Source: Bdellovibrionales bacterium (lineage in GTDB: Bacteria; Bdellovibrionota; Bdellovibrionia; Bdellovibrionales; UBA1609). Taken from it: a stretch of DNA of 64,000 nucleotides. The stretch is from positions 64,001-128,000 of the forward strand of contig DAHVQG010000002.1 of NCBI GenBank assembly GCA_027317865.1, read 5' to 3'. Of the stretch, positions 2,006-35,368 are shown one piece after another. The first letter of the stretch is position 1, and each line of letters opens with the position of its first letter. The notes beneath the pieces are model-generated. The model worked only from the letters and a program-made list of their open reading frames with translations. It searched no databases and was not told where the DNA came from. Position numbers and translations under genes: made by a program.

Positions 2006-2033
2006 CGTACCAACATGATGAACACCCACGCGA

Positions 2034-3797: not shown

Positions 3798-3814
3798 ATG
3801 CCTCGATTTGCCGA

Positions 3815-5359: not shown

Positions 5360-5381
5360 GCGCGCCTGCCTTTGCCAAAAT

Positions 5382-6755: not shown

Positions 6756-6757
6756 GA

Positions 6758-7507: not shown

Positions 7508-7509
7508 TT

Positions 7510-8352: not shown

Positions 8353-8364
8353 TTTTCATTTCTT

Positions 8365-9615: not shown

Positions 9616-10642
9616 TATTCACCAAAAAATCGGGCGTAAATCGAGGTGGCGTATTTGCAACTCCAACATGATCGGCGCCTTGCTTTTTGACCTCAATCAA
9701 AGCCCGCTCAGCCGAGCGCAACAGTTCTTCGGCGCCGTCGCTCAAACTTGGATATTCGCTGACACTTACTTGAACTGAAACCTTACCGACACTCCCCAAA
9801 ATGGCCTTAAATTTAGACGTCACAAAAATTCGCCTCATTCTTTCAGCCACGATCATCGCCCCTGATTGCGAAGTGTGCGGCAAACAAACGACAAATAAAT
9901 CGCGGGCGATTCTGCCGACCAGGTCATTAGTGCGGGTCAATTTATGCAGTATTTCGGCTATCGATTTGACAAAGTGCCGAACCGTTTCTGGAGGCACCTC
10001 GAGGGTCAAATCGTAAAAACGATCAACGGAAATAAAAACAAGTGAAACCGGCTTCTTAATTCGACGTGCGCGCGAAACCTCTTGCTCCAATTTTTGCCGA
10101 AAATAACCGGCGTTTAAAGCTTCGCAGTCGAGGTCGTAAATGGAAGTCCTGGCGAGTTTTTCTTGCAGCGATAAAACATGGCATCGCTGATTGGCAAATT
10201 TTTGCGCTAGTTGCATCTCGTAAGCGGCCGTACCGTATGAATCTTGATTTTCATGGCCGGCCAAATTTTGATTATCATTTGTCGCAAATACGAAAACACC
10301 CTGGGGGAGGTTGCCGTTTAACAGCGGTAAAATGAGTGCGTCTTTTCGGCATAGACCTTCGTTCACAAAATTTTGCAATGAGCTCAAGCGCCAAGGCTCT
10401 AAAAGTTGATCGGAATAGAAGCCGGGTTCTAGCGCCTGCAGGTCCAGCCCGACACCGTCGATGTAATTCGCTTCTAGGCCGATCGCCGATTCGGCAATCA
10501 GCGACCGTTTCGATTCGACGTATTTAAAATACACTGCGAGATCAGTACGCAGTTTCCGAACCCCCTCGCACAAAAATAACTGGATAAGTTCGTCTTGAGA
10601 AGTTGCCCTATTAGCCGTGCTAAAAAAATCGTCAAGGTTCAA
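9584..10642 (-). CDS. GAF-like plus degenerate GGDEF-domain protein
   Basis: C-terminal GGDEF fold (LEQEVSRARR...SLVFISVD...RTNDLVGRIARDLFVVCLP...AERMR...AERALIEVKKQG); A-site reads ARDLF. Confidence 0.85.
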   Translation of the reverse strand: MNLDDFFSTANRATSQDELIQLFLCEGVRKLRTDLAVYFKYVESKRSLIAESAIGLEANYIDGVGLDLQALEPGFYSDQLLEPWRLSSLQNFVNEGLCRKDALILPLLNGNLPQGVFVFATNDNQNLAGHENQDSYGTAAYEMQLAQKFANQRCHVLSLQEKLARTSIYDLDCEALNAGYFRQKLEQEVSRARRIKKPVSLVFISVDRFYDLTLEVPPETVRHFVKSIAEILHKLTRTNDLVGRIARDLFVVCLPHTSQSGAMIVAERMRRIFVTSKFKAILGSVGKVSVQVSVSEYPSLSDGAEELLRSAERALIEVKKQGADHVGVANTPPRFTPDFLVNNERNTPPVAR

Positions 10643-12492
10643 TCGTCACCTCGAACTTTTGCCTGTGGCATCTGTATAACGGACTCGTCTTTTGAATTTT
10701 CTGAAGCCGCCGAATCGCTTTCATCTGGCGACGGCGGTAGTATTTGGGCAATATCAGGCGGTACCGCTTTTGATTTTAGTTCCGCCGGCGTTTCACTTAT
10801 TGCCGCTGGAATTTTACATACTATTTGAAATCCATTGTAGCTGACTGGTTCTACCGTTACTTCGCCGTTCATTTCGTTAATCCGCGCACGCGCCAGAGCG
10901 AGGTCGAGCCCGCCTTTTTTGTTTGCCTTAATTTGAAACGGCGCAAACAATTTACGGCGAATTTCCGGAGTCAACTCCCGCCCACAAGCTTCGATACGAA
11001 ATTGGGCCATTCCTCCGAGTTTTTGCGCACTAAGCTTGAGCCGGCGATCGCTATCAGGAGACGAGTCGCTCAAATATTCACCGGCAAAGCCGAGCAGAGT
11101 CGCAAATGCCGATTTCAAACGCGTGAAATCCGCTTTCACGCGCAAATCAGGTTGAAAATTATCCTCAATTTGCACGCTTTGTTTCGTCAATGCCGGCTTT
11201 TTCACGGCGATCACAGCATTCAGAAGGCCCGACAAGTCGATGGCATCCAGCTTCAGCTCACTCGAGCGCGTCTCGCGTCCGAGAAACTCAACAAATTCAC
11301 GAACGGATTTTACAATGTCGCTCAACTGCCGATGTGTATTAACGGCTTTAATACTTGGAGTAGACCCCGTTAGATGCGACTCGAGCACCTGCAAATATCC
11401 GGACATGGCAATCACGGGACCGCGTAAGAAATCGACAATTCCGCGCAAGAGGTCGTCTTGATCCAAGAGTGAATCCGCCGTTTTTTGTTGGGTCGGAGCT
11501 TCAACCCGGCTTTGGGTTTCGGCCTTGGTGTTCGCTTCAACAACGGCAGCCGCCTTCGTTTTTGCCAAACGGAGCTTCTCCTTCAACAGTGCCCGCTCGC
11601 GACGTTCAAACCCTAAGACCATAGCTGCAATCAACGCGAGCAGCAGCGCCGCCACAGCTGCAATTTCAAATGCCGGTAAAAACGCCGGTGCTAGAATATC
11701 GATCCAATCAGGCAATGTTCTTGTGGCGACAACGTACAAATTGCTGTTTGGTACATGTTCATAACCGCCAATAGCCTTTTTATAGCCAATCGAAAATGTT
11801 TCGATTTTTTCTGCCGACGGCGCCGCAATCATATCAGCGACGACAGGATGAGCGTTTATGTCCGAACCGACGTATTGCACTTCTGGATAACCGACCGCAA
11901 TACCGGCTTGATTAACAACAAATAAATTGGAACGGCCGCTCGGGTCGGCAAAAGGCGCCAGCGCGAATAATCCGGGCCCGGCGAAACCGACAGCAATTCG
12001 ATTTTTCACTTTTGCGCCTGACACAACCCGCATTGGCACCGCGATGGCAAACAAAACTTGTTGGTTAGGCAACAGTAAGCGTTGCCAAAATACATCGCCC
12101 GGCTTCAGCGGGAATCCGCTCGACTGCTGCAAAACGTTTTGGGCCCAATCTTGAGTTATGTTGGGGACACGCGAACGCCACCAATTGATGTTCCAGTTGC
12201 CGTTCTCGTTAGGTGTCACTAGCGCCAAAGCGCGAAATTCGCTCGAAGCAAAAACTCGAGCGGGCGCCTGCGCATTCCACTCTTTGTTAATTAGGGCAGT
12301 GAGTTCGTCGCTCAAAGACCGGTTGAGTGCGACGCTCCATGAGCTAACGGCGTCCAGTAGATGGGTCACATCAACTCGCCGCGCGCTTCGCGTTTCGCTT
12401 GCAAATTTATTGGCTGCGATCCACCCGACTAATGTCGCCGTCACAAGCACGCCGACAAACAGAGTGACAATCAAAGGATGCCGAATTTTCAT
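10639..12492 (-). CDS. membrane sensor with Cache-like domain and degenerate histidine-kinase module
   Basis: Two TMs flank a Cache-like region (LFVVNQAGIAVGYP); HisKA-like helix GIVDFLRGPVIAMSGYLQVL; HATPase-like RRKLFAPF...GGLDLALARARINEMNGEV. Confidence 0.75.
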   Translation of the reverse strand: MKIRHPLIVTLFVGVLVTATLVGWIAANKFASETRSARRVDVTHLLDAVSSWSVALNRSLSDELTALINKEWNAQAPARVFASSEFRALALVTPNENGNWNINWWRSRVPNITQDWAQNVLQQSSGFPLKPGDVFWQRLLLPNQQVLFAIAVPMRVVSGAKVKNRIAVGFAGPGLFALAPFADPSGRSNLFVVNQAGIAVGYPEVQYVGSDINAHPVVADMIAAPSAEKIETFSIGYKKAIGGYEHVPNSNLYVVATRTLPDWIDILAPAFLPAFEIAAVAALLLALIAAMVLGFERRERALLKEKLRLAKTKAAAVVEANTKAETQSRVEAPTQQKTADSLLDQDDLLRGIVDFLRGPVIAMSGYLQVLESHLTGSTPSIKAVNTHRQLSDIVKSVREFVEFLGRETRSSELKLDAIDLSGLLNAVIAVKKPALTKQSVQIEDNFQPDLRVKADFTRLKSAFATLLGFAGEYLSDSSPDSDRRLKLSAQKLGGMAQFRIEACGRELTPEIRRKLFAPFQIKANKKGGLDLALARARINEMNGEVTVEPVSYNGFQIVCKIPAAISETPAELKSKAVPPDIAQILPPSPDESDSAASENSKDESVIQMPQAKVRGDD

Positions 12493-12649
12493 GATTCCCT
12501 TCTAGCAAAGCCAAGGCCCATCTAATTTTAAAGAGAGAACTGCTATTGCGGCAAGTTGCGAGCTGTAACAATTGCCTCCTCTTGACCGTGTGCGTCTCTT
12601 GGGCGCATAAGAAATCCGTCACAAACGAACAACACTCGCGGGGGAGCGC

Positions 12650-14272
12650 ATGAACTCGCATTCACAATACGAACATTTTGATTTTTTAGTGATTGGATCT
12701 GGACTCGCAGGACTCGTTTTCGCTCTGAAAGCGGCGAATACGGGGCGAGTTCTGGTTATTAGCAAAACAAATCTTGAACTTTCAAATACCGAAAAGGCTC
12801 AAGGCGGAATCGCCGCTGTCATGAGCGATGTCCCAGACGATAGTCTAGAAAAACACACGCAAGATACGCTTGTCGCCGGCGCCGGTCTTTGCGACGAAAA
12901 TGTAGTTCGCCACGTTGTCACTCAAGCCGCGAGCCGAATCCGCGATTTACAAGACTGGGGCGTTCAGTTTGATTTGGATAATAATCACAAGATCGCGCTG
13001 GGCCGCGAAGGGGGCCACACCGCACGACGGATTCTTCACGTTGCCGATCATACTGGGCTCGACATTCACCGCCAGGTGCTCGCACGAGTGCGCGCTAATC
13101 CCAACATCACACTCCGCGAAAATCACTTTGCAGTTGAACTGATCAGCCGACGCGAAGTCGACCCACATTACTTTGACCAAGATCAATGCCTTGGTGCTTA
13201 TATCCTTGATAAGAAAACAAATGAAGTTTATGTGCAAACGGCAAGCTACACGGTACTTGCGACTGGGGGCGCGGGTAAAGTTTATCTTTACACCTCAAAT
13301 TGGGAGGGTGCCACCGGCGATGGAATTGCGATGGCCCACCAACTCGGCGCGCGAGTCGCGAATATGGAATTCATGCAATTTCACCCGACATGCCTCTATC
13401 ACTCTAGCTCACGCAATTTTTTAATCTCTGAAGCATTGCGCGGCGAAGGCGGCGAGCTAATTAACGATAAAGGTGAAGCGTTCATGAAAAAGCATCACCC
13501 GCTCGGGAGTCTTGCCCCTCGTGACATTGTGGCACGCTCCATAGATGCCGAAATGAAAAAATCTGGTGCTGATTGTGTTTTTCTCGACATGACTCATAAA
13601 TCCGCCGAATTTTTGCGCGATCGATTTCCACAGATTTACAAACGTTGTTTTGAACTTGGCATCGATATGTCAAAAGAGCCAATTCCAGTTGTACCGGCGG
13701 CACATTACCTTTGCGGCGGCGTCAAGACGGATATTCACGGCCGAACTGACGTAGCCAACTTGTTTGCCGTTGGCGAAACCGCTTGCACCGGATTGCACGG
13801 TGCTAATCGCCTGGCTTCAAACTCGCTTCTTGAATGCCTTGTTTTTTCGCACAACGCCGCCGAATGGATTCGCGCCCACGATAATGACCGGATACGCAAC
13901 AAAGAGGTAATCGAACACGCCGCAATTCCCGACTGGAACGATCGCCAAAAAAGGCGGGATTTTAGTCCGCAAACCGGGCAAATTGAGGGACAAAATACAG
14001 ACGAACTCATTTTAGTTTCTCACATGTGGGATGAAATTCGCCGACTGATGTGGGCGTACGTCGGAATTGTTCGCACCAATCGCCGTCTCGAACGCGCGAA
14101 GCGTAGGCTTGCTAATATTTTGCAGGAGTTCGACGAATATTATTCGTCGTTTAAAACCAACGCCGACATTATTGAACTTCGCAATATTGCAACGGTTGCG
14201 AGCCTTACTGTCTCTCAGGCATTGGCGCGCAAAGAATCACGCGGAATACATTACAATTTAGATTATCCGTGA
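12650..14272 (+). CDS. nadB: L-aspartate oxidase
   Basis: IGSGLAGL, AQGGIA, REGGHTARRILH, QFHPT, SEALRGEG, LAPRDIVAR, AAHYLCGG, HGANRLASNSLLE, ESRGIHY. Confidence 0.97.
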   Translation: MNSHSQYEHFDFLVIGSGLAGLVFALKAANTGRVLVISKTNLELSNTEKAQGGIAAVMSDVPDDSLEKHTQDTLVAGAGLCDENVVRHVVTQAASRIRDLQDWGVQFDLDNNHKIALGREGGHTARRILHVADHTGLDIHRQVLARVRANPNITLRENHFAVELISRREVDPHYFDQDQCLGAYILDKKTNEVYVQTASYTVLATGGAGKVYLYTSNWEGATGDGIAMAHQLGARVANMEFMQFHPTCLYHSSSRNFLISEALRGEGGELINDKGEAFMKKHHPLGSLAPRDIVARSIDAEMKKSGADCVFLDMTHKSAEFLRDRFPQIYKRCFELGIDMSKEPIPVVPAAHYLCGGVKTDIHGRTDVANLFAVGETACTGLHGANRLASNSLLECLVFSHNAAEWIRAHDNDRIRNKEVIEHAAIPDWNDRQKRRDFSPQTGQIEGQNTDELILVSHMWDEIRRLMWAYVGIVRTNRRLERAKRRLANILQEFDEYYSSFKTNADIIELRNIATVASLTVSQALARKESRGIHYNLDYP

Positions 14273-14686
14273 TCAGTCATATTCGTCAGCTAAAGCCTCG
14301 CTTGTTTTTCGCCGCATAAAACGCATCATGCGCTTCAAATCGCTGCGACTTAGCGTCGGCCGTTTGCTGTTTGGGATCGTACCATGCGTAACTGAAGCGG
14401 GCGTTCGACCGTCATTGATTGTCCCAAAGGTATCAGACTTCTTTTGCATTAAAACGACTTTTTGGCGTCTTTGGTTTTTCGGTTGAATTTTGGGCGGCAA
14501 AGCTTGAACCGATGACGCCGGCAACGAAACGTAGTCAAAATTGACGAGTAGCAATCGCGTATGCGCGCGAACGTCGATTCTTTGGCGAGCGTATGACGAG
14601 ACGCTAAACAGTAAAAATGCGGCTAAAAATCCCGTTTCTAGAATAGAAATGGCGAATTTCTGCTTATAATCGTCCTGTGGCTTCAT
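14273..14686 (-). CDS. small basic secreted hypothetical protein
   Basis: Track ORF 14273..14740; ATG 14686 gives a signal-peptide-like start ending SSYA; lies just downstream of a sigma54-type promoter. Confidence 0.55.
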   Translation of the reverse strand: MKPQDDYKQKFAISILETGFLAAFLLFSVSSYARQRIDVRAHTRLLLVNFDYVSLPASSVQALPPKIQPKNQRRQKVVLMQKKSDTFGTINDGRTPASVTHGTIPNSKRPTLSRSDLKRMMRFMRRKTSEALADEYD

Positions 14687-14699
14687 ACCTGAAAAGAAG

Positions 14700-14716
14700 T
14701 GCACGATGAGTGCCAA
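14700..14716 (-). promoter_or_regulatory. sigma54 (RpoN) -24/-12 promoter
   Basis: Minus strand reads TTGGCAC-TCATC-GTGCA with exact GG-N10-GC spacing. Confidence 0.6.
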
Positions 14717-14799
14717 ATGCGTACGCAAAAATAGCGCCAAACCGCTGAGTCTAAATGAGAATATCCGTTCTTTAGAGCGTCGATCTTTTGTTGTGTTGT

Positions 14800-15318
14800 T
14801 TAAAAGTCGTACATGAGTCCCAAATCAAATACCAAAATCGTGCCCGGTTGCGAACTCACGGTCATATCAAACCGTGCCAATACGCTCGGCGTGATTTTGG
14901 TTAAAACACTTCCCGTAAAATACTCACCTAAAACAGTTTTGGCCCCCGTCACCATATCAGAGGTATATCGTGTTATATTGAGACCGATGCCCGTACCAAG
15001 TTCCAACGATTGAACGGGAATCTGCAAGCTGACTCCGCCGGCGACCTGTTGTAACGAAACTGCGCCGCCGTTGCCCGACGTATACGTCCCGTCAAAATAT
15101 CCTCCATGCGATGCGCTTGTTGGCATGGGAGCAGACAGGCGCAGACCCCAAATCGTAAAAATGTTGTCTTGATTTGAAACGTCGTGAGGTAAAGCTCGCC
15201 CGTAAAATGCGCCAAATTGCCAGGAGTCGGCTTGACCGCCCGCTGACTGCGCAAAGGCTTTACCGGCAATGACTAAAAGAAAAGACAGAAATAAAACCAA
15301 AGTTGCGGTTCTGTACAA
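14800..15318 (-). CDS. small outer-membrane beta-barrel-like protein
   Basis: TTG 15318 follows a GAGAGG RBS (track start 15360); signal peptide ending AFA; alternating beta-strands; C-terminal DLGLMYDF. Confidence 0.65.
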   Translation of the reverse strand: MYRTATLVLFLSFLLVIAGKAFAQSAGGQADSWQFGAFYGRALPHDVSNQDNIFTIWGLRLSAPMPTSASHGGYFDGTYTSGNGGAVSLQQVAGGVSLQIPVQSLELGTGIGLNITRYTSDMVTGAKTVLGEYFTGSVLTKITPSVLARFDMTVSSQPGTILVFDLGLMYDF

Positions 15319-15387
15319 CGAATTACCTCTCTGTGTCTCAACTGTTTTGTTGAATGCCACACTGTCATGGCCTAGGATATCCGTATC

Positions 15388-16287
15388 ATGATCGAAAGGC
15401 TAGAGGGCACATTGCGGGGGTACCAAGACGTCGAGCTGTATTACCAGCTGTGGCGCCCCGGCGAAGACGAAAACATCGGCAGTTCACGCGGTCATTCGCC
15501 TTCAGCTGCGACCATCGTCGTGACTCACGGAATTGCCGAGCACTCTGACTGTTACGAGCGATTTGCTGAAGCCGTTACCAAACAAGGCTACACCGTATTC
15601 GCCTGGGATTTACGCGGGCATGGCCACTCCGACGGTAAACGCGGCTACGTTAACCGCTTTGAAGATTTCAGCGACGATCTTGAAGCCGTCACGCGATTTG
15701 TGAAATCCGAATTTTGGGATAAAAATACCCCGCTTTTTCTATTCGGCCACTCGATGGGCGGTCTTATCACCCTCAAACTTTTACTTGATCACTCGCCTTC
15801 CGATTTTTATGGTTTGATTTTGAGTTCACCGGCACTCGGCTTATCTCTAGAAGTGCCAAAAGTTAAAGAGTTAGCCGCTCACTGGCTTTCGGAGTGGCTC
15901 CCAAAAGTTACACTTTATAATGAAATTAAATTCGACGATCTTGTTCGTGATCAAAATTTAGTGAGGCAATACAGGGCCGATCCGCTCCGTCACAATCGAA
16001 TTTCCCCGCGGCTATTTCTTGGACTGATGCAAACAATGGAAGAAGTAAAACGCGACGCCGGTAAAATTCAAATGCCGACACTAATGCAGTTGGCCGGCCG
16101 GGAGAAACTCGTAAGCACGTCCGTTTCTGAAGCGTTTTTTGAGAATTTGGGAGCAAAGAAAAAAGAACTTTACATCTACGCCGACAGCTTTCACGAAATT
16201 TACAACGACCTGGACCGAGATGACGTTTTTCGCGATTTATTTCGATTTTTAGAAAAATCGGCGCGGGAATTTAAAAACGGAGCTTAA
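15388..16287 (+). CDS. alpha/beta hydrolase, lysophospholipase/monoacylglycerol lipase family
   Basis: HGIAEH, DLRGHGHS, nucleophile elbow GHSMGG, SSPAL, HEIYND. Confidence 0.92.
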   Translation: MIERLEGTLRGYQDVELYYQLWRPGEDENIGSSRGHSPSAATIVVTHGIAEHSDCYERFAEAVTKQGYTVFAWDLRGHGHSDGKRGYVNRFEDFSDDLEAVTRFVKSEFWDKNTPLFLFGHSMGGLITLKLLLDHSPSDFYGLILSSPALGLSLEVPKVKELAAHWLSEWLPKVTLYNEIKFDDLVRDQNLVRQYRADPLRHNRISPRLFLGLMQTMEEVKRDAGKIQMPTLMQLAGREKLVSTSVSEAFFENLGAKKKELYIYADSFHEIYNDLDRDDVFRDLFRFLEKSAREFKNGA

Positions 16288-16291
16288 ACCA

Positions 16292-16927
16292 ATGAAGTTT
16301 AATCGGATTTGTTGCGCGATTGTTGCAAGTTTTGTTTGTACAACATTGGCCGCCTGCGTGCAGGCTCCGATAAATGATACCACTAATCACTCGCGACTAG
16401 ACAACGCCGAATACGACCAGCTTATTAATCAGTATACCCGGCATGAGGAACAGTATAAAGGGTTTAACCAACGTTTTGACGTTTATGCGACGATTTTGAC
16501 GAATGCCGTACAGGCGGCGATATTAAAACAACGCGGCCGCATTTACGAATGGACCCCCTCTCAGGCGCAAGATGCGCGCAACAGAATGTTTCAAAAAAAT
16601 AGCACTGAAACTCAATTTGCGGTCAGCTTTTTTGTTCCGAATTTACAATTAAACGACCTCAATCGCGCAAACAGCATTTGGCGAATCTACCTCGACGCCG
16701 GCGGCAAACGATACATTGGCCACGCGCGAAAGCGTGAAGAGCCGCTTGAAACCATACAGTCGATGTTCCCGTACGATACGAGATTTCATAAGGCTTACGT
16801 CGTAACTTTTAATGTCCCGCTTGCCATTATTGAAAATCAGACGGCCACGTTGATTTTTGCAAGTGCGCAAGGTCTCGCTCGTTTAAGATTTATGCCGCCG
16901 CCTAATCCGCAGATAAATAATTATTAG
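16292..16927 (+). CDS. hypothetical lipoprotein
   Basis: Lipobox TLAAC; starts 4 nt after the hydrolase stop. Confidence 0.7.
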   Translation: MKFNRICCAIVASFVCTTLAACVQAPINDTTNHSRLDNAEYDQLINQYTRHEEQYKGFNQRFDVYATILTNAVQAAILKQRGRIYEWTPSQAQDARNRMFQKNSTETQFAVSFFVPNLQLNDLNRANSIWRIYLDAGGKRYIGHARKREEPLETIQSMFPYDTRFHKAYVVTFNVPLAIIENQTATLIFASAQGLARLRFMPPPNPQINNY

Positions 16928-16939
16928 TTGTGATGCAAA

Positions 16940-17761
16940 TTAAGCTGATTTTTCATCCCGTTGCCTGACAAGGTCGCTTAAAGGAATTTTTCGCGCCGGT
17001 ACACCGCCCCAAATTTCTCCGTCACCGACAATTGTTTTAGGCATAACAACCGAATGCGCTAAAATCTTAGCCTCTCGACCAATCTTCACTCCGCCCATTA
17101 TTGTGGCACGAAGCCCGATCGTCGTGCGGTCGCCGATTGATACAGGGGCTAGGACTAAAAAACCAGACTGACCGTAATGGCCGACAATCGTCGCCGATCC
17201 ACCGATAGTCACCTTTTCGCCCATTGAAATTAGCGCAGGGTCAGAGATGTGCGAAGTGTTGATGATTGTTCCGCGTCCTATATGCATCCCCATTAAACGG
17301 TAAAATAAAATGTTTAAGGGACTTGGGGTAATAAATTCGAGAAACGTAAACCGCATAACATAGGTAATGCCGTTATGAATAAACCACGGCACTGCGGGCA
17401 ACGAATAGTAGGGCCCGCGCCAAGCCTTAGGTTTGAGTCTTAAAATAAAATTAAGAAGCGGGAGGAGCAGAACAAGCGATAAACCATAAAAGAGATAACC
17501 TAAACAAGCCGAACAGCCGAGCGCCCAAAGACGGAAAAATATCGGCCACGACCGCGTACTGAGAAAAACGATACGAAAAACGGCAAGCCCTGGTAGAACC
17601 GCAAGACTGATCCAAGCGCAACCCATCGCATAGAGCGGCAATAGTAAAACGATTTGGCTTAATTCGCGAAAAGTGCGGAAAAAGCGCTCTGCGTAACCCG
17701 CTATGCCACTCCGCCGGCTCGTCGTGCTATCGACATTAGTTCGCCTTTTGAATTTTTTCAT
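16940..17761 (-). CDS. membrane-anchored left-handed beta-helix (hexapeptide) acyltransferase
   Basis: N-terminal TMs, then IGRGTII, MGEKVTIGGSATI, IGDRTTIGLRATI, IGREAKI and WGGVPARKI. Confidence 0.85.
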   Translation of the reverse strand: MKKFKRRTNVDSTTSRRSGIAGYAERFFRTFRELSQIVLLLPLYAMGCAWISLAVLPGLAVFRIVFLSTRSWPIFFRLWALGCSACLGYLFYGLSLVLLLPLLNFILRLKPKAWRGPYYSLPAVPWFIHNGITYVMRFTFLEFITPSPLNILFYRLMGMHIGRGTIINTSHISDPALISMGEKVTIGGSATIVGHYGQSGFLVLAPVSIGDRTTIGLRATIMGGVKIGREAKILAHSVVMPKTIVGDGEIWGGVPARKIPLSDLVRQRDEKSA

Positions 17762-17772
17762 ATTCGCAATGT

Positions 17773-17800
17773 TTATCGGCTATTTTTGAGACAATGTTTA
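17773..17800 (-). promoter_or_regulatory. sigma28 (FliA) promoter for the acyltransferase
   Basis: Minus strand TAAA-cattgtctcaaaaata(16 nt)-GCCGATAA, ending 11 nt upstream of the ATG. Confidence 0.75.
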
Positions 17801-17811
17801 TACTTCGCGAT

Positions 17812-18885
17812 TTATGTATAGTACCGCTCAAATTCGCGCTTGAGTTGTTCAGCCTCGATCTCAGACATGAAAAAATGAAGACGGACTTGTGTCGGCAGAC
17901 GAAAAAGACGGGCTGGCCTCAACCAAACGCCAGTTTCACGTAAAATTCGTTCGGCAAACGCGTCTCCGCTGCGGAATTTTTTCGGAATCCGCAATGTCGC
18001 AAAGTGCCCCGATTGAAGATCATGTGAAAATAAATTGTGCTGAGAATAGCCCGCTCTACTCATGCCGAATTCACGAAAAATCGCTCGCGGTTTTTCAAGC
18101 GCACGCAAATTTGATTCGATTAATTGATCCCAGTTCTGCAAAGCCAACCGTGCCGCCGCTAACGAAAACGACGGCATTTCGATGTGAAAGTTATATCCTA
18201 CACGCTCAAAATTCATCGCCACTTTTGGTTCGGCTCGAAGCCATCCAAATCGAGCCGCCGACAATCCAATTGATTTGCTTAGGCTCCCAATGAGAATCAC
18301 GTTTCGCGGAATGCCCCCTGACAAAATCGACATTTTCCCATCCGAAAAAAGCGGCAAAAATACTTCATCGATAATCACCCATTTAAATAAACGGCTGAAT
18401 GACAAAAGTTCGTCACGCGTCGACAACCGGCCGGTCGGGCAATTGGGATTCGACAGGACCAAAATCTGACAGCGTTTACTTGCCTTTTTTACCGCCGCGA
18501 AATCTCGCTCTATATCAAAGGTGCGATTAAAAAATTCGACTTTCAAACCCAAAAATTCGGCACAAGTCGGGAACGGGTCATACGCGGGCGACTCGACAAG
18601 CACGCGATCGCCTGTTTTGCTAACCGTTGCCAGCGCTTGGGTGTAAACGCTGCTACTCCCGGGAGCAAACCGAAACTCATCGGCGGCGCCGTTCACGTGC
18701 CTTGCAAGTAATTCTTTGATTACGGTTGAAACCTGATCAATTTCTTCGTACGCGAAGGGAATGTTCATGTCGGCAAAGAACTCGGCACTGGCCGGAAACG
18801 GCGGCGTTGAACCGCTTAAATTCAACCGGCATGGTGGAGTCTCGTGAACCATACTATATAGATATCGACTCGTCGGACGCGCCAT
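17812..18885 (-). CDS. PLP-dependent aminotransferase class I/II
   Basis: SNPNCPTG, IIDEVF, PLP lysine in SLSKSIGLSAARFGW; start reassigned to ATG 18885 because the track start (18996) would cover the fliC promoter. Confidence 0.88.
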   Translation of the reverse strand: MARPTSRYLYSMVHETPPCRLNLSGSTPPFPASAEFFADMNIPFAYEEIDQVSTVIKELLARHVNGAADEFRFAPGSSSVYTQALATVSKTGDRVLVESPAYDPFPTCAEFLGLKVEFFNRTFDIERDFAAVKKASKRCQILVLSNPNCPTGRLSTRDELLSFSRLFKWVIIDEVFLPLFSDGKMSILSGGIPRNVILIGSLSKSIGLSAARFGWLRAEPKVAMNFERVGYNFHIEMPSFSLAAARLALQNWDQLIESNLRALEKPRAIFREFGMSRAGYSQHNLFSHDLQSGHFATLRIPKKFRSGDAFAERILRETGVWLRPARLFRLPTQVRLHFFMSEIEAEQLKREFERYYT

Positions 18886-18918
18886 AAGCCTAGTTTTTCG
18901 CAAATTGAGATATTTTTG

Positions 18919-18946
18919 TAAAGCCTCATTTTGAGACAGCCGAGTA
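18919..18946 (+). promoter_or_regulatory. sigma28 (FliA) promoter of flagellin 1
   Basis: TAAA-N16-GCCGAGTA, about 90 nt upstream of fliC. Confidence 0.7.
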
Positions 18947-18988
18947 GACCTTTGAGTAATTTCAACCCACGGGTCGCAAAGGCCCCCT

Positions 18989-27596: not shown

Positions 27597-28364
27597 ATGT
27601 TTGGGAAACGAAAGCTTTCAATAACAGTAAGTGCATCCGTTTTCATTTTGGCAGGGGCAGTTGCGACGGCAGTTGGCTGCAAAGCGAGCGCCACGCCGAT
27701 TAAGAATGAACTGCAATCCGACTGGAGATACATCCAATCCGTTCAAATTAAAAAAATAAGCGAAACGCAGTTACCTTACCAAACGACTTCAATGGGGTAC
27801 AATTACAGTTGTACAACTAGCCCTAACGGAATGTCGCCGGATGAAAATGCACAAGCGGCAAATCCTTTTAGTCTAGTAAACATTTCGCAAATCATAAATT
27901 TTGGCGCCAAGGTTTGGCAGTTTATTAATGACAACACACCCGTGGTATCGGCGCAGACTATGTCAGCTAATGCTCTGCCGAAGGGCACCGTTTGTTGGTA
28001 CGATCTTGAAAATTGGCAACCGCCACGCAGTGACACTTACGAAATCGATTATAAAAACCTATTTGGCATAAATGTCGTACGCCTCGCGTTTAGCCTCATT
28101 TACAGTTACGGGGGCCAATACAACGGGCGCGGCCGTTATCTAATGAATGCGACGGTTCAATATCGCGATTTGCAAGTGGCTTGGGGCGGATTTCATGTTA
28201 ACGCCAACGTTGATGTCCCAACCGTGACAAACATTGGTACCAAACAAAATCCAGTTGCCGGGCTTCAGCTTAATATTCACTGGGTCGTCAAAGGGCTTAA
28301 TCGCATCGAGCGCACCGCGAGCTTTTTCATTGCTGGTGACGGACGCCCGACCAAAGAACTATGA
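27597..28364 (+). CDS. hypothetical exported protein/lipoprotein, beta-rich
   Basis: G-rich RBS; signal/lipobox AVATAVGC; amphipathic helix, then a beta-strand-rich domain. Confidence 0.7.
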   Translation: MFGKRKLSITVSASVFILAGAVATAVGCKASATPIKNELQSDWRYIQSVQIKKISETQLPYQTTSMGYNYSCTTSPNGMSPDENAQAANPFSLVNISQIINFGAKVWQFINDNTPVVSAQTMSANALPKGTVCWYDLENWQPPRSDTYEIDYKNLFGINVVRLAFSLIYSYGGQYNGRGRYLMNATVQYRDLQVAWGGFHVNANVDVPTVTNIGTKQNPVAGLQLNIHWVVKGLNRIERTASFFIAGDGRPTKEL

Positions 28365-31300
28365 CGCTTTCTCAGTCAAAATTTTACTACAAGGTATATT
28401 CGGGCGAAGTCGAGAACTTCGCTCGCGCAATTGTCGGCGCCGATTGATGGCGTCGACGTAGTCGCTGAACGGTTTGCGATTTTCTCGAGCTAAAACCGAA
28501 TTTTGAATCGATTCAAATTGCTGCCCATCTAAGCTGCCATTGTTGCGAATAATAGCGGCAGCAGCGGCGCGAACCAAATCCCAATTCTGTTCGAGATATT
28601 GTCGCGCGAGATTTTCCCCTTCATCTATAAGCTCATTCATTTTTTGCTCGAGCAGTTTTGACTGCTCTGGTGTTAAAACAGGCTCACCGTTATCATTTAA
28701 GCGAATACCCCGCAGCCGCTTATCTAATCCCCACTTAATAAAATAATTCGTGGCGATATTTCGTGCTTGTTCCAAGTCGTTTGAAGCACCGCTGTCTTCC
28801 GCGTAACCCGCCAACGACTGTGCGACTCGACCAGCCATAAGCTGCGCGATCGTCGCTAATGCTCCTTCTCGAGTCATATTTCCCGAGCGTCCGGGCAGCA
28901 AATCGTACCTCGCGTATCCTAAATACATTAAGTCTTTGGCGCGACCACCGCGAATTGTGACGTATTCAAGAACCTTACCGGTGAGCTTGGGGTCATTGAC
29001 GACGGCGTGTCCTGCTTCATGGTAAACAACGGCCATTGCTTCGCGCGCATCCATCAGCATTCGAGTGGAGGCGTGCTCGGTTAGATCAATACGATGCGTA
29101 CTTGTATTTCCGTTTGAGTCGGCGACTTGGGCCACAATTTCAGTTTTTCGTTTTGGCGAGTTTGAAAAACGGTAGGGCTTGAGTCGTCCGTTATCTTTAA
29201 GTTCAAGTCGAACTTTTACGGAGTCAAATCCTTGCTCAGGTATTCCGTGGTCGATCAAGGCGCTGGTTAACAACGAATTTAAACGATGATCCGTTAGATC
29301 GCGAATGCTTCGCCCGCCTTTGTCTTTGCTAAAGAAACTTTCAGCCAACTGTCTGATAAACTGCTCATCGTATTCAACTTTTACCCCTGAATTGTTGGCT
29401 TCATAATGTGAGATCTGTTGGGCGAAAAGTTTTCGCGTTATCGCCTCGGCTTCAGGGCTCAATATCGGCTTCATCAAAACCGAATCAGCCATTCTATTAA
29501 TAAATGCTTGCGGCACACCCGCGCGAAGCAACAATTCTCGTACTCGTTCGCGCGCCTTGTAAGTCTCCCAAACTTTCATGAGCATATCATCAGAGGTAAT
29601 CCCCTGAAACAACTCCTCACCGTCGTTACCCGTGAAGACAAATACATATTTGCTGAGGTCGTACACTTTTCCGTTAACCGGAGACACCCACGTTTTTTCA
29701 TCAACAATGTTATAGAGCTTTTTAAATAACTCGGCTTTGCGAGCCCGGTCTCCGCCACCCATGTTTGATGCTTCGTCAAAAATAATTACGCCGCCATTTG
29801 GATGAGCGATTAGCGCCTCTTCAAATAAGCGCGGCTGATCCGAGCCAATATAACCCGGCTGAACGCCGAGCACTTTGTTGAAATCGGCCTCGTTCTGAAC
29901 CTCACCGAGAGGAATGATAGTGGCTTGATCAATGGAACCGAAACCAGCCTCCGCAATCGCCCTGCCCATTTCAGTTTTGCCGTTGCCCGAAGTTCCAATA
30001 AAAAAGAACGAGGTCGCCCGATCGTTTTCATTTTGCCCGAGTTTTGCAATCAGTGCTTCAGATGCGCTTTTGCCGGCTTCAGTTTGCCCGATCACGCGTC
30101 TGCCAATTACTTCTGGAATGCTTTTTAACTTCGCGACGACTTGCGGGTCATATAGAGGATTTTGGCTCGAGTTTTGCGGACCCAAAAGTTTCACGTCTAC
30201 GTCATGACCTTTAGCGCGTAAATATGTTTTATTCTTATCGCCCTTAAATATTGAAACGACGATTTCTTCGGATTTCTGAGGCTCTTCACCACCGACTTTG
30301 GTGAACAAATTCGTCAAGTGCGTTTTAACTGCGCGTCGTATCTGACGGCCATCATCGTTGGCGGTAAAGTTGGTCAACGCGAGATATTTAACTACTTGAG
30401 GTTCAATTTCAACTTGCAGACCGATTTCTCTCATTTGCCCGACAAAAACATCGGCCTCGTCTTGCGCAATTTTCACCGCAGCTTCGTCTGATAGGGGTTG
30501 CGACAGTAGCCATCCGTCGATTCTGTTTATCACTTCGCGCGGCAACATTTTTCTATCACTTGCTCCTTGCGAAGTTTCATACAGTTCTCGAAGTTCGGCC
30601 GTCGTAACGGTTTCAACTCGTTTTTTAAGCTGCTCGTTCGTCCAATTCTTTATCTCCCGCGGGAATATCTTTTTCGTTCCACGGTTGGAGGTGAGAATAA
30701 TATATAGAAAATTTGCCTTATACTTTGTGCCATCGCCCGCCGTGATTTCGCCACGATCAAGAAGTTCCATGAGGCGCATCCAAATTTCCGGATGCATTTT
30801 GTCCGCCTCATTGATCACAAGTACGCCGTTACCGCCGGTGGCTTTCAGCCATTCGGTTATGGCACCTTTTTGCTGGCCAGCTTGACCCGGCGGCGCACCG
30901 ACAAGTTTATGAAACTCAAAGGAATTCGACATCTGTTGTTGATATTCGGTTCCATCAATCTTGAGCACGTACTTATCAGATCCAAAAATGTCTTTAGCGA
31001 ATTCTTCAGCCGCGTAGGACTTGCCGGTTCCTGACGGGCCCATCATTAGCGCAGTAAAAACTCGCTTAGAAGGGTTCATAAGCGACATTTTGTAAAGATC
31101 CGTGAGCCCATCAATCAGCCGATCTTGTCCGTATATCCTATCGTGAAGTTCGGTTGACAGATTTTTGGCTCGATCTTCGACTTCAGTTAGCCGACCCATA
31201 CCCAAGTTTTTGGGGAGCCATTTAAAATCCGACTGTTGAGGAGCCAGCCAGAATCTTGGAATATCATCGATCGATCGCGCTTTCGAGACAAAAGGCCGAA

Positions 31301-31814
31301 ACCGTTCGTCGATTTGTGTCGCTTCTCCGTTATCATTTAAAAGTTGCTCATAGGTGGCGGTTTGGCCGTCTTCTTTCAAGACCGAAAACAGAAAATATTC
31401 TTTGCTATTAGAAAGCGTCACCCAGCGGCCCGACCATTCCTTAATTTGCGTACCGTCTATACCCAGTTTTTGTAAAATCCCCGCCGAATTGTAGACCCAT
31501 ACCGATTTGCCGCGAATGATGAGGACGTCATTAGGGTTTAATTGCGGCGCCACCTGATCGCGAGCCGCATAGTACGCGCTTTCATTTACCGCCAAAAGCT
31601 TCGGGCGAGCTTTCCACGGAGCGAATTGCTTTACCATTTTCGGATTCTGTCCGTTGCTTTTAACGTAAAGCGCGGAATTTAAATACAAGCGGCCGTGGCC
31701 CAGAAAAACCTGTTTTGTACCATAGTCGATGTAAACTTTTTCTGTTTCAGCCCGCACCTGGTTGCAGCACATGATCGTTACCACAGCTAAGAGTACGGCC
31801 TTCCCCCACTTCAT
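28359..31814 (-). CDS. signal peptide + two ClpA/B D2-type AAA+ modules + FtsH-type M41 zinc protease
   Basis: Start ATG 31814 after a GGGGGG RBS (track start 31850); MKWGKAVLLAVVTIMCCNQVRA; Walker A GPSGTGKS and GTSGNGKT; LVGAPPG and LGVQPGYIG pore loops; YHEAGHAVV; MAGRVAQ; SGASNDL. Confidence 0.88.
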   Translation of the reverse strand: MKWGKAVLLAVVTIMCCNQVRAETEKVYIDYGTKQVFLGHGRLYLNSALYVKSNGQNPKMVKQFAPWKARPKLLAVNESAYYAARDQVAPQLNPNDVLIIRGKSVWVYNSAGILQKLGIDGTQIKEWSGRWVTLSNSKEYFLFSVLKEDGQTATYEQLLNDNGEATQIDERFRPFVSKARSIDDIPRFWLAPQQSDFKWLPKNLGMGRLTEVEDRAKNLSTELHDRIYGQDRLIDGLTDLYKMSLMNPSKRVFTALMMGPSGTGKSYAAEEFAKDIFGSDKYVLKIDGTEYQQQMSNSFEFHKLVGAPPGQAGQQKGAITEWLKATGGNGVLVINEADKMHPEIWMRLMELLDRGEITAGDGTKYKANFLYIILTSNRGTKKIFPREIKNWTNEQLKKRVETVTTAELRELYETSQGASDRKMLPREVINRIDGWLLSQPLSDEAAVKIAQDEADVFVGQMREIGLQVEIEPQVVKYLALTNFTANDDGRQIRRAVKTHLTNLFTKVGGEEPQKSEEIVVSIFKGDKNKTYLRAKGHDVDVKLLGPQNSSQNPLYDPQVVAKLKSIPEVIGRRVIGQTEAGKSASEALIAKLGQNENDRATSFFFIGTSGNGKTEMGRAIAEAGFGSIDQATIIPLGEVQNEADFNKVLGVQPGYIGSDQPRLFEEALIAHPNGGVIIFDEASNMGGGDRARKAELFKKLYNIVDEKTWVSPVNGKVYDLSKYVFVFTGNDGEELFQGITSDDMLMKVWETYKARERVRELLLRAGVPQAFINRMADSVLMKPILSPEAEAITRKLFAQQISHYEANNSGVKVEYDEQFIRQLAESFFSKDKGGRSIRDLTDHRLNSLLTSALIDHGIPEQGFDSVKVRLELKDNGRLKPYRFSNSPKRKTEIVAQVADSNGNTSTHRIDLTEHASTRMLMDAREAMAVVYHEAGHAVVNDPKLTGKVLEYVTIRGGRAKDLMYLGYARYDLLPGRSGNMTREGALATIAQLMAGRVAQSLAGYAEDSGASNDLEQARNIATNYFIKWGLDKRLRGIRLNDNGEPVLTPEQSKLLEQKMNELIDEGENLARQYLEQNWDLVRAAAAAIIRNNGSLDGQQFESIQNSVLARENRKPFSDYVDAINRRRQLRERSSRLRPNIPCSKILTEKAS

Positions 31815-31984
31815 GAAATCCCCCCGGATTAGTCTTTCGCGCCTGAACACGATCCCAAAAATGCTTTATGGCTCTACCACAGCTTTTTCATAAAGTGATT
31901 TGCAACAGTAGAAAATGAAACCTTTACACAATTGCGCTTTTAAATCTGCTTGAGTGAATGGCGCATGTGCGTTAACAAATCAGA

Positions 31985-32983: not shown

Positions 32984-35368
32984 CTATAGCGTAGGATTCA
33001 TCATATTTTTGTTTTCACCGTGCTGTATTGATCCTTCAAAACGTGTTTTTCGGCACGTGATGGAGTTATACGTACAGTTAAGGCGCATATCTGGATATTG
33101 ATTGTGGTACATGCGCTCGGCATCGAAAATTGATTCGATGAATTTTCGGTTAATATTAGTGGTAATTGGATTTCCGTTGATGTCGTGCGGCCAATAATAT
33201 GAAATGGGCGGCACATGGTGCGGCAAATAGAAATCCAATTCAATACTTAGAGACTTCGCAAGATCGGACTGTGGGATAATTGAAGAAATAAATGCCGGGC
33301 CAATTTCTTTAAACAAATCGTCCAGCAACAGGTTTTCAAATGCCGCTTTTCGCTCGTTTGCCGGCAAACTGAGATTTATAACTTCAGTTAGATATTTAGT
33401 AATAAAAAGTAGGTCTCGACAGTAGCGAATCACCCGGACATTTTGTCCGTTTACTCTTGAAAATCCCAAATCAGCAACGCATTGATGTTCGTCTTGCGGT
33501 CGAAGATACATCGGCGTCGATTTTAGCCCCTGTGCCCAACGGACCGTCGTTGCCAGATGACCCATAATAGAATCCCGTAACTGTCGAGGAGTATATCCGT
33601 AATAATGATTTTCTACCGCTTCAAGCCCATAACGATTTAAAAAGTAGCGCCCAGACACGCGCATGGTCGGCAACATTCTTCGCAAATGCAGCAAATTATG
33701 CTTCGCTAAAAATGTCGTGCGCATATCATAAAAAATGCTCGGCGGTAAAATATTATGAAAATATTGAATGACGGCGCGATTGGCTCGATTGGTGTAGTGC
33801 GTCCGCTTAAGCTCATAATAAAGACCCAATGTTTTAAACTCGAGCGGGTCAAAATTTTTATCGGCGTTAAACATCATCACTTCGTCTTGTAACAAATCGA
33901 AATGATAGAAATTAAAGAATGCAGCAGTTTGGTGGCGTGAATAACATTGTTGAAAGATATAGTATTTGTGCTTTAGTTGACCGGCTTTGGTGTCGTAATC
34001 GGTTATCATCCTGTGTTCGCGACAACTTTCTTGCTGCGAAATTTTAAACACCCCGCCTAAGCCGATATGCCACTGAATGGGCGTACTTAAATCCGCGGGG
34101 CTGAACGAATAGTCCGAACCGATAAAATTACGGTCAACGCGTCGATCATTAAACGGCTTTGACACATCTTCGCTGTATAGTTTTTCAATCTTAGTAAGAT
34201 TGTTAATTAGTATTTTTTGAACTCGTTTTTGATTGCTCGTCGGGTCGACTATCTTCCATACTAAATCATTCAATTTGCCGTTTCGAAAAATAAGTGCCTT
34301 GCTGAAGAGATCATCGTAAGCCTTGCGCACTTTGGGATATTTCAAGTTAAGAGTATAATCGGCTAAAAATGCGCCTCTCACTTTTTTGGCATCAATCTGC
34401 AAACCGCCGACATCGTTCAATTTCAATATCGAAAAGCCTACATTTTCAAGCATATGAAAGGGGGTGTATTGGCTAAACCAAGCATCGCCAAAACCGACCT
34501 TATATATTTCTTGCCAATCTTTGGTGCGATCCGCGACAAGGCGAATTCTCGCCATATCGTTTCGCCCCCGAAAAACGTAGACGTCGTATTCGCCCGACCA
34601 CAACTTGCCGACACTCGAATTAAGAAACGCCACGTTGCCGATCGGCAAATAGTAAGAACCTCCAAAGAACAAATTTAACGGCACCTTAAATCGAACTGTT
34701 GTACCGGGCTTAAGCCGATGAAGGAGCACATGGGCATTAACCGGCAAATCGTTGGCGACAAAGTCGACAAGCGGAATTTTGCGGGTATGGGTGGCGTCAT
34801 GGTAGGTCTTAAATAGGCGCCAAAAATCGATTTCTTGATTCGATTGAATCGTTATATCAAGTGGATAATTGTTGCGTAAGACCCAATGTAACGGGCTGAG
34901 CGTTTCGCTCGGAATAAATCCGTCCTCTCTCAAAGTATACCCGTCGATATATGCCGGCGATAATTCAATGCGATCGCGAACTCCGAGCCCAAACGCATCC
35001 AAAACCGTCTTATTTTCGTTTAGCTCATCAACTGAAATATTGGAGTTTTCGACGCTCTTCTCCCCCCACTTATAAAATCGATGTAGCGCTCCGCCCGCTT
35101 GGCGAAATTTTTTCTTTGCTTTCTCATCAAGCTTTTTTAAGTCCGAATTACTGAGATTAATCTCCTTTAACTTCGGCATTTTGCTTACGTTGACAATAAA
35201 CCCTTCAACCCCGGATAGATTGGGGGGCGGAAGCTTATTAGGCTCTTGAAAAAAATGTTGAGCTGATAGCGATTGATCCGTCTGGGCGCGAGCGTAGCTG
35301 ATCGGTTGAACTGTAAAAAATCCAACAATCAATAAAATTATTAAAAGTCGATTGCCATTCAAATGCAC
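32984..35368 (-). CDS. large secreted hypothetical protein
   Basis: 794-aa ORF; GTG after a GGGAG RBS; signal peptide ending ARA; no motif recognised. Confidence 0.7.
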   Translation of the reverse strand: MHLNGNRLLIILLIVGFFTVQPISYARAQTDQSLSAQHFFQEPNKLPPPNLSGVEGFIVNVSKMPKLKEINLSNSDLKKLDEKAKKKFRQAGGALHRFYKWGEKSVENSNISVDELNENKTVLDAFGLGVRDRIELSPAYIDGYTLREDGFIPSETLSPLHWVLRNNYPLDITIQSNQEIDFWRLFKTYHDATHTRKIPLVDFVANDLPVNAHVLLHRLKPGTTVRFKVPLNLFFGGSYYLPIGNVAFLNSSVGKLWSGEYDVYVFRGRNDMARIRLVADRTKDWQEIYKVGFGDAWFSQYTPFHMLENVGFSILKLNDVGGLQIDAKKVRGAFLADYTLNLKYPKVRKAYDDLFSKALIFRNGKLNDLVWKIVDPTSNQKRVQKILINNLTKIEKLYSEDVSKPFNDRRVDRNFIGSDYSFSPADLSTPIQWHIGLGGVFKISQQESCREHRMITDYDTKAGQLKHKYYIFQQCYSRHQTAAFFNFYHFDLLQDEVMMFNADKNFDPLEFKTLGLYYELKRTHYTNRANRAVIQYFHNILPPSIFYDMRTTFLAKHNLLHLRRMLPTMRVSGRYFLNRYGLEAVENHYYGYTPRQLRDSIMGHLATTVRWAQGLKSTPMYLRPQDEHQCVADLGFSRVNGQNVRVIRYCRDLLFITKYLTEVINLSLPANERKAAFENLLLDDLFKEIGPAFISSIIPQSDLAKSLSIELDFYLPHHVPPISYYWPHDINGNPITTNINRKFIESIFDAERMYHNQYPDMRLNCTYNSITCRKTRFEGSIQHGENKNMMNPTL

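Follow-up and report, generated by a model that had tools for sequence, protein, structure and literature searches.

The stretch of DNA analysed here, called the window below, comprises 64,000 nucleotides from an uncultured Bdellovibrionales bacterium (positions 64,001 to 128,000 of contig DAHVQG010000002.1, GenBank assembly GCA_027317865.1), whose genome of 2.65 Mb was recovered from environmental metagenomes in 42 contigs and is 99.2% complete. On the reverse strand of the window, at positions 28359-31814, lies a gene for a protein of 1151 amino acids, designated P0001 (P, L, C and G numbers are our own handles for proteins, loci, contigs and genomes, with G000 as the source genome). P0001 joins two Clp-type AAA+ ATPase modules to an FtsH-type M41 zinc protease domain, begins with a predicted signal peptide and ends in a short tail with a single cysteine. 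It belongs to what is, by sequence, a family of predicted exported and soluble AAA+-M41 proteases set apart from both FtsH and ClpB. On balance we lean towards the view that P0001 is an exported, ring-forming, ATP-driven protease that would run outside the cytoplasm of its producer on the ATP of an attacked cell, and that its cysteine tail would serve as a portable tag.

The longest reading frame of the gene extends to a GTG at 31850. A G-run resembling a Shine-Dalgarno sequence stands just ahead of the downstream ATG (Table 1), and a like G-run precedes the GTG start of the orthologue at L089 (G040:C13), which comes from a genome of the same genus and is 66% identical to P0001. In P0001 Pfam recognises AAA_2 twice, together with a ClpB_D2-small lid and a Peptidase_M41 domain. 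The NCBIfam matches are confined to the D2 region of ClpB/ClpA/TssH, which is hit twice, and to the protease portion of FtsH. Sequence matches in the PDB are to ClpB NBD2 (E ~5e-27) and to FtsH protease domains (E 4.7e-11). The AlphaFold model (predicted local distance difference test score, pLDDT, 81) begins with an all-beta N-domain (residues 25-160); module 1 follows, separated from module 2 by a small beta insert, and a beta linker joins module 2 to the M41 domain, behind which lie two terminal helices. A Foldseek search with the full-length model retrieved subunits of the ClpC/ClpB/ClpA double-ring hexamers (E ~1e-20). The N-domain has no Pfam match, and when it was modelled alone (pLDDT 65.7) the alignments used misplaced its last ~11 residues. 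The best structural match, to beta-propeller blades, had Z 6.2, inside the noise range of the tool, and no fold was assigned.

As in FtsH, an AAA+ motor and a C-terminal M41 domain are joined in one chain in P0001, and the HEXXH of the M41 domain is followed further on by an Asp ligand. FtsH, however, has two N-terminal transmembrane (TM) helices, a periplasmic loop, a cytoplasmic active site and one AAA module of the classical clade, whereas P0001 has a signal peptide, no TM helix, no match to FtsH_ext (PF06480) and two modules of the ClpB-D2 type. Its score against the FtsH model TIGR01241 is 64.3 bits, from the M41 part only, where the cut-off is 600. Since it lacks the TM helices, carries AAA modules of another clade and scores below the cut-off, P0001 is not FtsH proper. 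The likeness to ClpB, ClpA, ClpC and Hsp104 lies in the motor: both modules match D2 (NBD2), the D2-small lid is present and the full-length model superposes. In ClpB terms (TIGR03346), the match covers profile positions 554-845 twice, for 186.7 bits against a cut-off of 1232, and Clp_N (PF02861), D1, the coiled-coil middle domain and AAA_lid_9 were not found in P0001, which is therefore not ClpB either. It also differs from ClpB, ClpA and ClpC in that its protease is part of the same chain and not, like ClpP, a separate protein, and in being, as predicted, exported.

The residues on which ATP hydrolysis and proteolysis depend were followed through an alignment of 31 sequences at 26-66% identity to P0001, namely P0001 itself and 30 of the 32 matches from a word-indexed search; P0002 (identical) and P0015 (a near-duplicate of P0014) were left out. 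The elements expected of a functional AAA+ module (Walker A and B, sensor-1, Arg finger and sensor-2) can be recognised in both modules of P0001, most of them at invariant positions, as are the zinc-protease residues (Table 1). The residue before the catalytic Glu of module 1 is Asn or Asp across the family and Asn in P0001. Within the two-module subclade, module 1 lacks the aromatic residue of the pore loop (GAPPGQ--AGQ; GAPPGQAGQ in P0001), and the pore loop of module 2 reads G-Y-[IVQAS]-G in most sequences and GYIG in P0001.

Table 1. Features of the P0001 gene and protein, with positions in the window; invariance refers to the alignment of 31 sequences
Feature	Residues of P0001	Window position	Strand	Basis or conservation
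Shine-Dalgarno-like G-run, GGGGGGA		31820..31825	-	5 nt upstream of ATG 31814; read from the sequence
Signal peptide, MKWGKAVLLAVVTIMCCNQVRA then E23	1-22	31749..31814	-	Predicted cleavage A22/E23
Beta-rich N-terminal domain, no family assignment	23-165	31320..31748	-	All-beta in AlphaFold2 models
AAA+ module 1, ClpB-D2 type	~206-510	30285..31199	-	Pfam AAA_2 1.3e-32; ClpB NBD2 structures
AAA+ module 2, ClpB-D2 type, with D2-small lid	~557-862	29229..30146	-	Pfam; TssH/ClpB D2 region
Peptidase M41 (FtsH-type)	~915-1110	28485..29072	-	PF01434 6.2e-17, 62.5 bits (cut-off 29.9)
C-terminal extension: helix, basic stretch, Cys tail	1111-1151	28362..28484	-	AlphaFold2 model, sequence
Cys-tail motif C1142-S-K-I-L		28377..28391	-	Sole Cys of mature P0001
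Walker A, module 1, GPSGTGKS	259-266			G259, G262, G264, K265 invariant
Walker B, module 1, I-N-E	Asn335, Glu336			E336 invariant
Sensor-1, module 1	T375, N377			Both invariant
Arg finger and sensor-2, module 1	R431, R490			Both invariant
Walker A, module 2, GTSGNGKT	607-614			G607, G612, K613, T614 invariant
Walker B, module 2, F-D-E	680-681			D680 invariant, E681 at least 90%
Sensor-1, Arg finger, sensor-2, module 2	N730, R774, R835			All invariant
M41 site, HEAGH and Asp1013	932-936, 1013			H932, E933, H936, D1013 invariant in 31/31

The N-terminus of P0001 has the anatomy of a substrate of the Sec pathway and signal peptidase I. A basic n-region (MKWGK, with 2 Lys) is followed by an h-region of 12 uncharged residues, AVLLAVVTIMCC, within the usual range of 7-15, and by a c-region, NQVRA, that puts V at -3 and A at -1 before E; cleavage by signal peptidase I would then fall between A22 and E23. 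There is no lipobox, the 'IMC' of P0001 lying outside the pattern L-[AS]-[GA]-C. In a Kyte-Doolittle scan of 19-residue windows, the highest mean is 1.31, in the signal peptide, and 1.0 elsewhere, both below the TM threshold. Because every window falls short of TM hydrophobicity, P0001 is predicted to have no other TM segment, and its N-terminal hydrophobic stretch is, to judge from the sequence, too short for a membrane anchor. The earlier note on this DNA had described P0001 as an ATP-dependent protease with an export signal and no other TM segment. The first part of that description agrees with the ATPase and M41 residues conserved through the 31 sequences, the second is borne out by the n/h/c anatomy, the VxA site and the persistence of the signal across a family at 26-66% identity, and the third by the hydropathy scan.

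The signal is a property of the family rather than of one sequence. The strict rule applied here accepts a protein only if an uncharged stretch of 11 or more residues starts no later than residue 30 and includes 10 consecutive residues with a mean hydropathy of 2.2 or more, if the n-region carries a net positive charge, and if positions -3 and -1 are occupied by small residues. P0001 itself passes. At the database start codons the rule picks out 75/109 family representatives of at least 1000 amino acids and 0/221 cytoplasmic controls (ClpB-like 0/27, valyl-tRNA synthetase, ValRS, 0/120, canonical phosphoribosyl pyrophosphate (PRPP) synthases 0/70, and an AAA-M41 outgroup 0/4), with a baseline of 669/2251 in a crude set of open reading frames (ORFs) from the source genome. 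When any of the first six starts was allowed at the genomic loci, 28/35 were positive against an ORF baseline of 895/2251, and three of the 7 negative loci are cut by a contig end. The signal peptides themselves are mutually unrelated in sequence, with only the n/h/c pattern retained. Export and ATP use both appear to be under selection, since the signal-peptide rule picks out most of the family and none of the controls and the catalytic residues are invariant or nearly so. The database start of P0003, the closest homologue, is miscalled: at L089 an upstream GTG, with the same G-run, adds MTRVLAATIAVFSVLFCIMAMA, which has the form of a signal peptide with predicted cleavage before DQS. At two other loci, L099 (G332) and L127 (G359), the signal peptides end in lipobox-like sequences (...AAAVGAC and ...LAVLSSC), which suggests lipid-anchored variants.

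The word-indexed search found 32 further proteins with Clp-type AAA and M41 domains at E<=1e-103, of 1054-1482 amino acids, the longer of which carry a third, D1-like module, and an exhaustive phmmer search of 1.84 billion representatives yielded 176 at E<=1e-30. Whole genomes were searched with the same P0001 query at E<=1e-60. Members turned up in 38/401 genomes of the producer's own phylum, Bdellovibrionota, and in 28/203 of its genera, with none in 301 genomes of the phylum containing a Polyangiaceae record or in 401 genomes of the phylum containing a Pseudomonas record. A pattern scan of genome contigs for [TV][AS][FYI]HEAGHA returned only ordinary FtsH genes and no family members. One homologue is named 'Oligoflexia bacterium' and one Atlas cluster is labelled Bdellovibrionota; the ValRS homologues of the source genome carry the names Bdellovibrionales or Pseudobdellovibrionaceae at 64-65% identity. 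So far the family is restricted to Bdellovibrionota. Two copies are interrupted and are possible pseudogenes or sequencing errors, one at L102 (G325:C35:76237-79020), in a genome of the same genus, with two in-frame stops (1 TGA and 1 TAG), and the one at L099 (G332:C82), with 1 TAA in frame.

P0001 falls within a wider set of fusions with the same module pairing, AAA(ClpB-D2-small)-M41, which also exist without a signal peptide, in Atlas clusters of 581-900 amino acids (scores 0.92-0.95) from Uroviricota, Bacteroidota and Campylobacterota. Four such proteins (P0046, P0061, P0063 and P0065), the closest ones outside the family clade, are unlike P0001 in having a helical N-terminus, Clp_N-like in our own reading, no signal peptide (0/4), no cysteine tail (0/4) and 3-13 cysteines. 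The known members of the clusters of 581-722 amino acids are mostly phages (Uroviricota), and phage-encoded Clp-type M41 proteases seem to be little described.

P0001 ends in ...RRRQLRERSSRLRPNIPCSKILTEKAS. Residues 1121-1141 hold 7 K/R against 2 D/E, and they lead into C1142-S-K-I-L. C1142 is at least 90% conserved, and C-x-x-hydrophobic-hydrophobic occurs near the end of 30/31 aligned proteins. A larger set was taken from 150 listed matches plus the query, giving 101 representatives of at least 1000 amino acids with HExGH. A cysteine stands within the last 30 residues in 97/101 of these, where 2.4% would be expected from the body Cys frequency of 0.0008, and in 48/101 the stretch from residue 45 up to the tail contains no Cys. 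The tails follow the consensus C-[EAS]-x-[LAIFV]-[LF], and 1-24 residues (median 9) come after the Cys. Depletion of Cys from the body was considered as a sign of export and rejected, ClpB-like proteins (0.0012) and FtsH (0.0024) being similarly Cys-poor.

The tail is not confined to the protease family. Across the source genome, 25/2251 ORFs have C..[IL][LF] among their final 15 residues, against 5.9 +/- 2.3 in shuffled tails, and C..[ILV][LI] occurs in the last 22 residues of 24/669 ORFs with a strict signal peptide and 16/1582 others (odds ratio 3.6, p=7e-5). With signal peptides classed by a lenient heuristic, the latter motif is found in 27/850 tails of signal-peptide proteins against 11/4045 internal windows, and it shows no tail enrichment in proteins lacking a signal peptide (tails 13/1401, internal windows 50/6435). 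About 25 other exported proteins of the source genome bear the Cys tail. The earlier note had remarked on the basic C-terminus of P0001, which the residue count confirms, and had mentioned a C-x-x-[IL]-[LF] motif that recurs at the ends of secreted proteins of this phylum; such a motif does recur on exported proteins of the source genome.

A similar published case is that of the Cys-type sorting signals, in which an invariant Cys near the C-terminus marks unrelated exported families (Haft, 10.1101/2023.06.07.544157). Signals of the MYXO-CTERM type are tripartite, consisting of a motif, a TM helix and a cluster of Arg residues, and CPBP/Rce1-like proteases cleave them (10.1101/2023.06.07.544157). 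The tail described here resembles them in placing an invariant Cys motif on many unrelated exported proteins (97/101 in the family, the 24 strict-signal ORFs, and 41/42 in the PRPP-synthetase-like clade described below). It differs in that neither a TM helix nor an Arg cluster follows the Cys, only 9 residues lying beyond C1142. Moreover, the CPBP/Rce1-like protease family PF02517 has 0 matches in the source genome, while 11/14 control genomes were positive. NCBIfam sorting-domain models match neither P0001 nor the other tail carriers, and Haft (10.1101/2023.06.07.544157) mentions neither Bdellovibrio nor a Cys tail lacking a TM helix. A CaaX box is a poor fit as well, its Cys being fixed at -4, whereas C1142 stands in a chain of 1151 residues and, across the family, anything from 1 to 24 residues may follow the Cys. 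A literature search, from whose coverage subscription journals were mostly absent, found no description of a Cys tail of this type. The short C-terminal Cys tail is probably a new tag.

Among its other carriers in the source genome are two more proteases of the family. One, on contig C37, has 1450 amino acids and three modules, with Walker A, HExxH, a signal peptide and the Cys tail; the other, at L154 (G000:C38:191229-194516, forward strand), is a more diverged AAA+-AAA+-M41 protein of 1095 amino acids (HEFGH) with a signal peptide, Walker A motifs and a tail reading ...SDCANILQGA. The C37 paralogue is housed in a tight operon of nine genes at L138 (G000:C37:70000-89000, positions 1794-18984 of the locus, reverse strand), all 9/9 products of which pass the lenient signal-peptide heuristic and 6/9 of which have a Cys tail. 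The operon encodes two SLOG/LOG-domain proteins, a PRPP-synthetase-like protein, the AAA+-M41 protein, an EEP nuclease and four proteins without a family. The PRPP-synthetase-like product (L138:14156-15598, reverse strand; 480 amino acids) scores as a ribose-phosphate-diphosphokinase-like protein above the NCBIfam subfamily cut-off.

In the clade to which this product belongs (P0229-P0270, ~460-490 amino acids), 33/42 proteins have a strict signal peptide, against 0/70 canonical PRPP synthases, and a Cys lies within 26 residues of the C-terminus in 41/42, against 6/70. Because this clade carries both features, a second and unrelated type of ATP-using enzyme has apparently been recruited to the format of export signal plus tail. 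Further carriers are a protein of the cytidine/dCMP-deaminase fold (L148, G000:C11:250929-251543, reverse strand) and a cyanophycinase above the NCBIfam cut-off (L143, G000:C4:7687-8499, reverse strand), both with a lenient signal peptide and a Cys tail, as well as DUF7790 and TraB/GumN-like proteins and many without a family. Since the PRPP-like enzymes, the deaminase and the cyanophycinase use cytoplasmic metabolites, action at a place where the contents of the prey cytoplasm are available would fit them.

To our knowledge, the textbook position is that ATP-dependent unfoldase-proteases work only in the cytoplasm, since the periplasm and the outside of the cell are free of ATP. A family of ~176 sequence clusters that keeps both an export signal and its ATPase sites points instead to a compartment powered by the ATP of another cell. 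Because the two features are kept together, the machine is expected to work outside the cytoplasm of its producer, and ATP is plausibly available there during an attack. An ATP transport system is said to have been described by Ruby and McCabe in 1986 in B. bacteriovorus 109J, as cited in a 2026 review (PMC13689555).

The favoured scheme would run as follows. P0001 would be exported by Sec and processed by signal peptidase I, and by analogy to ClpA/B/C and FtsH would assemble into a three-tier ring, with two stacked AAA+ rings of the ClpB-D2 type above a ring of M41 zinc proteases. The N-terminal beta domain would select substrates. The main motor would be module 2, which has an intact Walker B and the Tyr of its pore loop and would feed polypeptide chains into the HEAGH chamber. 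Module 1 reads Asn-Glu at Walker B and lacks an aromatic residue in its pore loop; it probably binds ATP, and either hydrolyses it slowly or has a role in assembly. The working site would lie outside the producer cytoplasm and be supplied with ATP only while another cell is under attack; it could be the prey cytoplasm, the space around the killed prey, or the producer periplasm or surface bathed in prey contents. The likely job would be the processive degradation of prey proteins. The thiol of the tail would most likely be a reactive handle for a second step of targeting, tethering or restraint after Sec export. A sorting signal, as the earlier note suggested, is one reading of the tail, and a site of disulfide formation or lipidation another. 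Oligomeric state, ATP source and the role of the tail are all points that we infer. If the scheme holds, the family and the exported PRPP-like, deaminase and SLOG proteins would be concrete candidates for the means by which predators like Bdellovibrio get at the prey cytoplasm and take it apart, and the single tail cysteine would offer a way to track down further members of the set, together with the machinery that recognises the tail.

Two known systems offer partial precedents for an ATP-driven machine at work on a neighbouring cell. HSP101 of Plasmodium is a secreted ClpB-type unfoldase of PTEX that works between parasite and host and feeds the pore EXP2. Its chains 6e10 and 6e11 are among the PDB sequence matches of P0001, with the likeness confined to the shared Clp-type module; unlike P0001, HSP101 lacks a protease domain. 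Next to the P0001 gene there is no candidate for a pore gene, in a survey that covered the neighbourhood only, no genome-wide pore search having been made. In phytoplasmas, FtsH/AAA+ paralogues have been predicted to face outward, toward the ATP-containing compartment of the host, and to degrade host proteins (PMC6981957, citing Seemuller et al. 2013). Those copies are membrane-anchored, in wall-less bacteria living inside their hosts, and topology programs disagree about them (PMC6981957), whereas P0001 is predicted to be soluble and Sec-exported in a diderm. Nothing on exported AAA+ proteins appears in PMC3239186 (deaminase) or PMC3322544 (a phytoplasma genome review), and a full-text literature search, with subscription journals mostly outside its coverage, found no description of an AAA+ protease with a signal peptide in diderm bacteria.

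A more conventional account would hold that the hydrophobic N-terminus is not a working signal, or holds the protein in the membrane with its catalytic domains on the inner side, and that P0001 is a cytoplasmic quality-control protease like FtsH. The characterised AAA+ proteases of Gram-negative bacteria are, as far as is known, all cytoplasmic, the M41 domain is FtsH-like, and ~10/109 family representatives, judged by eye, show no signal peptide at the annotated start. We nevertheless consider this account unlikely: the h-region has only 12 residues and no window reaches TM hydrophobicity, the positive charges on its N side and the small residues at -3 and -1 give the secretory orientation, and there is no second TM segment to return the AAA+ part to the inside. 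The signal has also been kept despite sequence divergence, relatives that lack it exist and differ in appearance, and the same genome already encodes ordinary ClpB and ClpA, an FtsH of the canonical two-TM type and two Lon genes. If export is accepted, the AAA+ modules might still be relics, and the protein a periplasmic chaperone-protease like DegP, or a scaffold, that needs no ATP. The periplasm is held to have no ATP supply, and in the subclade of P0001 the pore loop of module 1 has lost its aromatic residue and Asn stands where Walker B usually has Asp. Set against this are the Walker A Lys, catalytic Glu, sensor-1 Asn, Arg finger and sensor-2 Arg, invariant or nearly so in 31 sequences down to 26% identity, and a module 2 pore loop, GY[IV]G, kept in most of them; relics would not be expected to be so conserved, and a second ATP-using type, the PRPP-synthetase-like proteins, is exported in the same lineage. 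An ATP-independent role is improbable because the ATPase and zinc-protease residues have been conserved together.

Harder to separate from the favoured scheme, and in fact a sub-case of it, is the possibility that P0001 is exported and ATP-dependent and yet stays in the periplasm or at the surface of its producer, perhaps held by the Cys tail, and digests leaked prey proteins with leaked ATP. We regard this as a minority possibility of some substance. Only a Sec signal is evident, no translocon gene adjoins the P0001 gene, the lipobox-like signal peptides at L099 and L127 would anchor their proteins to a membrane, a single free Cys suits tethering, and the reported uptake of ATP by Bdellovibrio would imply that ATP passes through the periplasm. 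A weak argument on the other side is that several of the tail-bearing enzymes of nucleotide metabolism would be more effective inside the prey cell. P0001 might alternatively reach the prey cytoplasm, as the earlier note proposed in calling it a candidate prey-delivered effector; the evidence fits a digestive protease that runs on ATP leaked from the prey just as well. More speculative, and in our judgement doubtful, is an extension in which Sec signal peptide and Cys tail together would define a two-signal class of attack proteins, the tail driving a second step into the prey cell. Such a class would include both AAA+-M41 machines and nucleotide-metabolising enzymes that use prey ATP and metabolites, and the AAA+-M41 protein would either digest the prey proteome from within or, like HSP101, unfold other tail-bearing proteins for passage across membranes.

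Several observations weigh against the scheme of an exported protease running on the ATP of an attacked cell. There is no evident route for a mature chain of ~127 kDa across the outer membrane or a prey membrane, and the four secretin-family genes of the genome do not adjoin tail-bearing genes. No conserved partner gene was seen beside the P0001 gene. The replacement of the Walker B Asp by Asn in module 1 of P0001 counts here as well, as do the representatives with no visible signal peptide. The signal-peptide calls come from a heuristic of our own and not from SignalP. Its lenient form (87/109 in the family, 38/42 in the PRPP-like clade, 803/2251 ORFs) was dropped, having also flagged 23/27 ClpB-like proteins, and under the strict rule 34/109 family representatives are negative, although eight of these lack an initial Met, several have demonstrable start miscalls and about ten have clear signal peptides that the rule misses because the h-region contains a charged residue or the signal peptide begins past residue 30. 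The predatory habit of the uncultured source organism is inferred from taxonomy only. The family is, finally, patchy within its phylum, with a single match in one taxonomic family of 100 genomes; because of this patchiness it is not a general requirement of the lifestyle.

The P0001 gene is solitary, lying between housekeeping genes on the opposite strand (RNase R and UbiB on one side, Sua5/TsaC and ValRS on the other). A promoter scan of its upstream region found no sigma-70-like site, and terminator-like sites at the gene were not above those in shuffled sequence. Elsewhere in the window, an ORF at 32984-35368 on the reverse strand encodes a protein of 794 amino acids, without a Pfam family, that has a signal-peptide-like N-terminus, ...LLIILLIVGFFTVQPISYARAQ.

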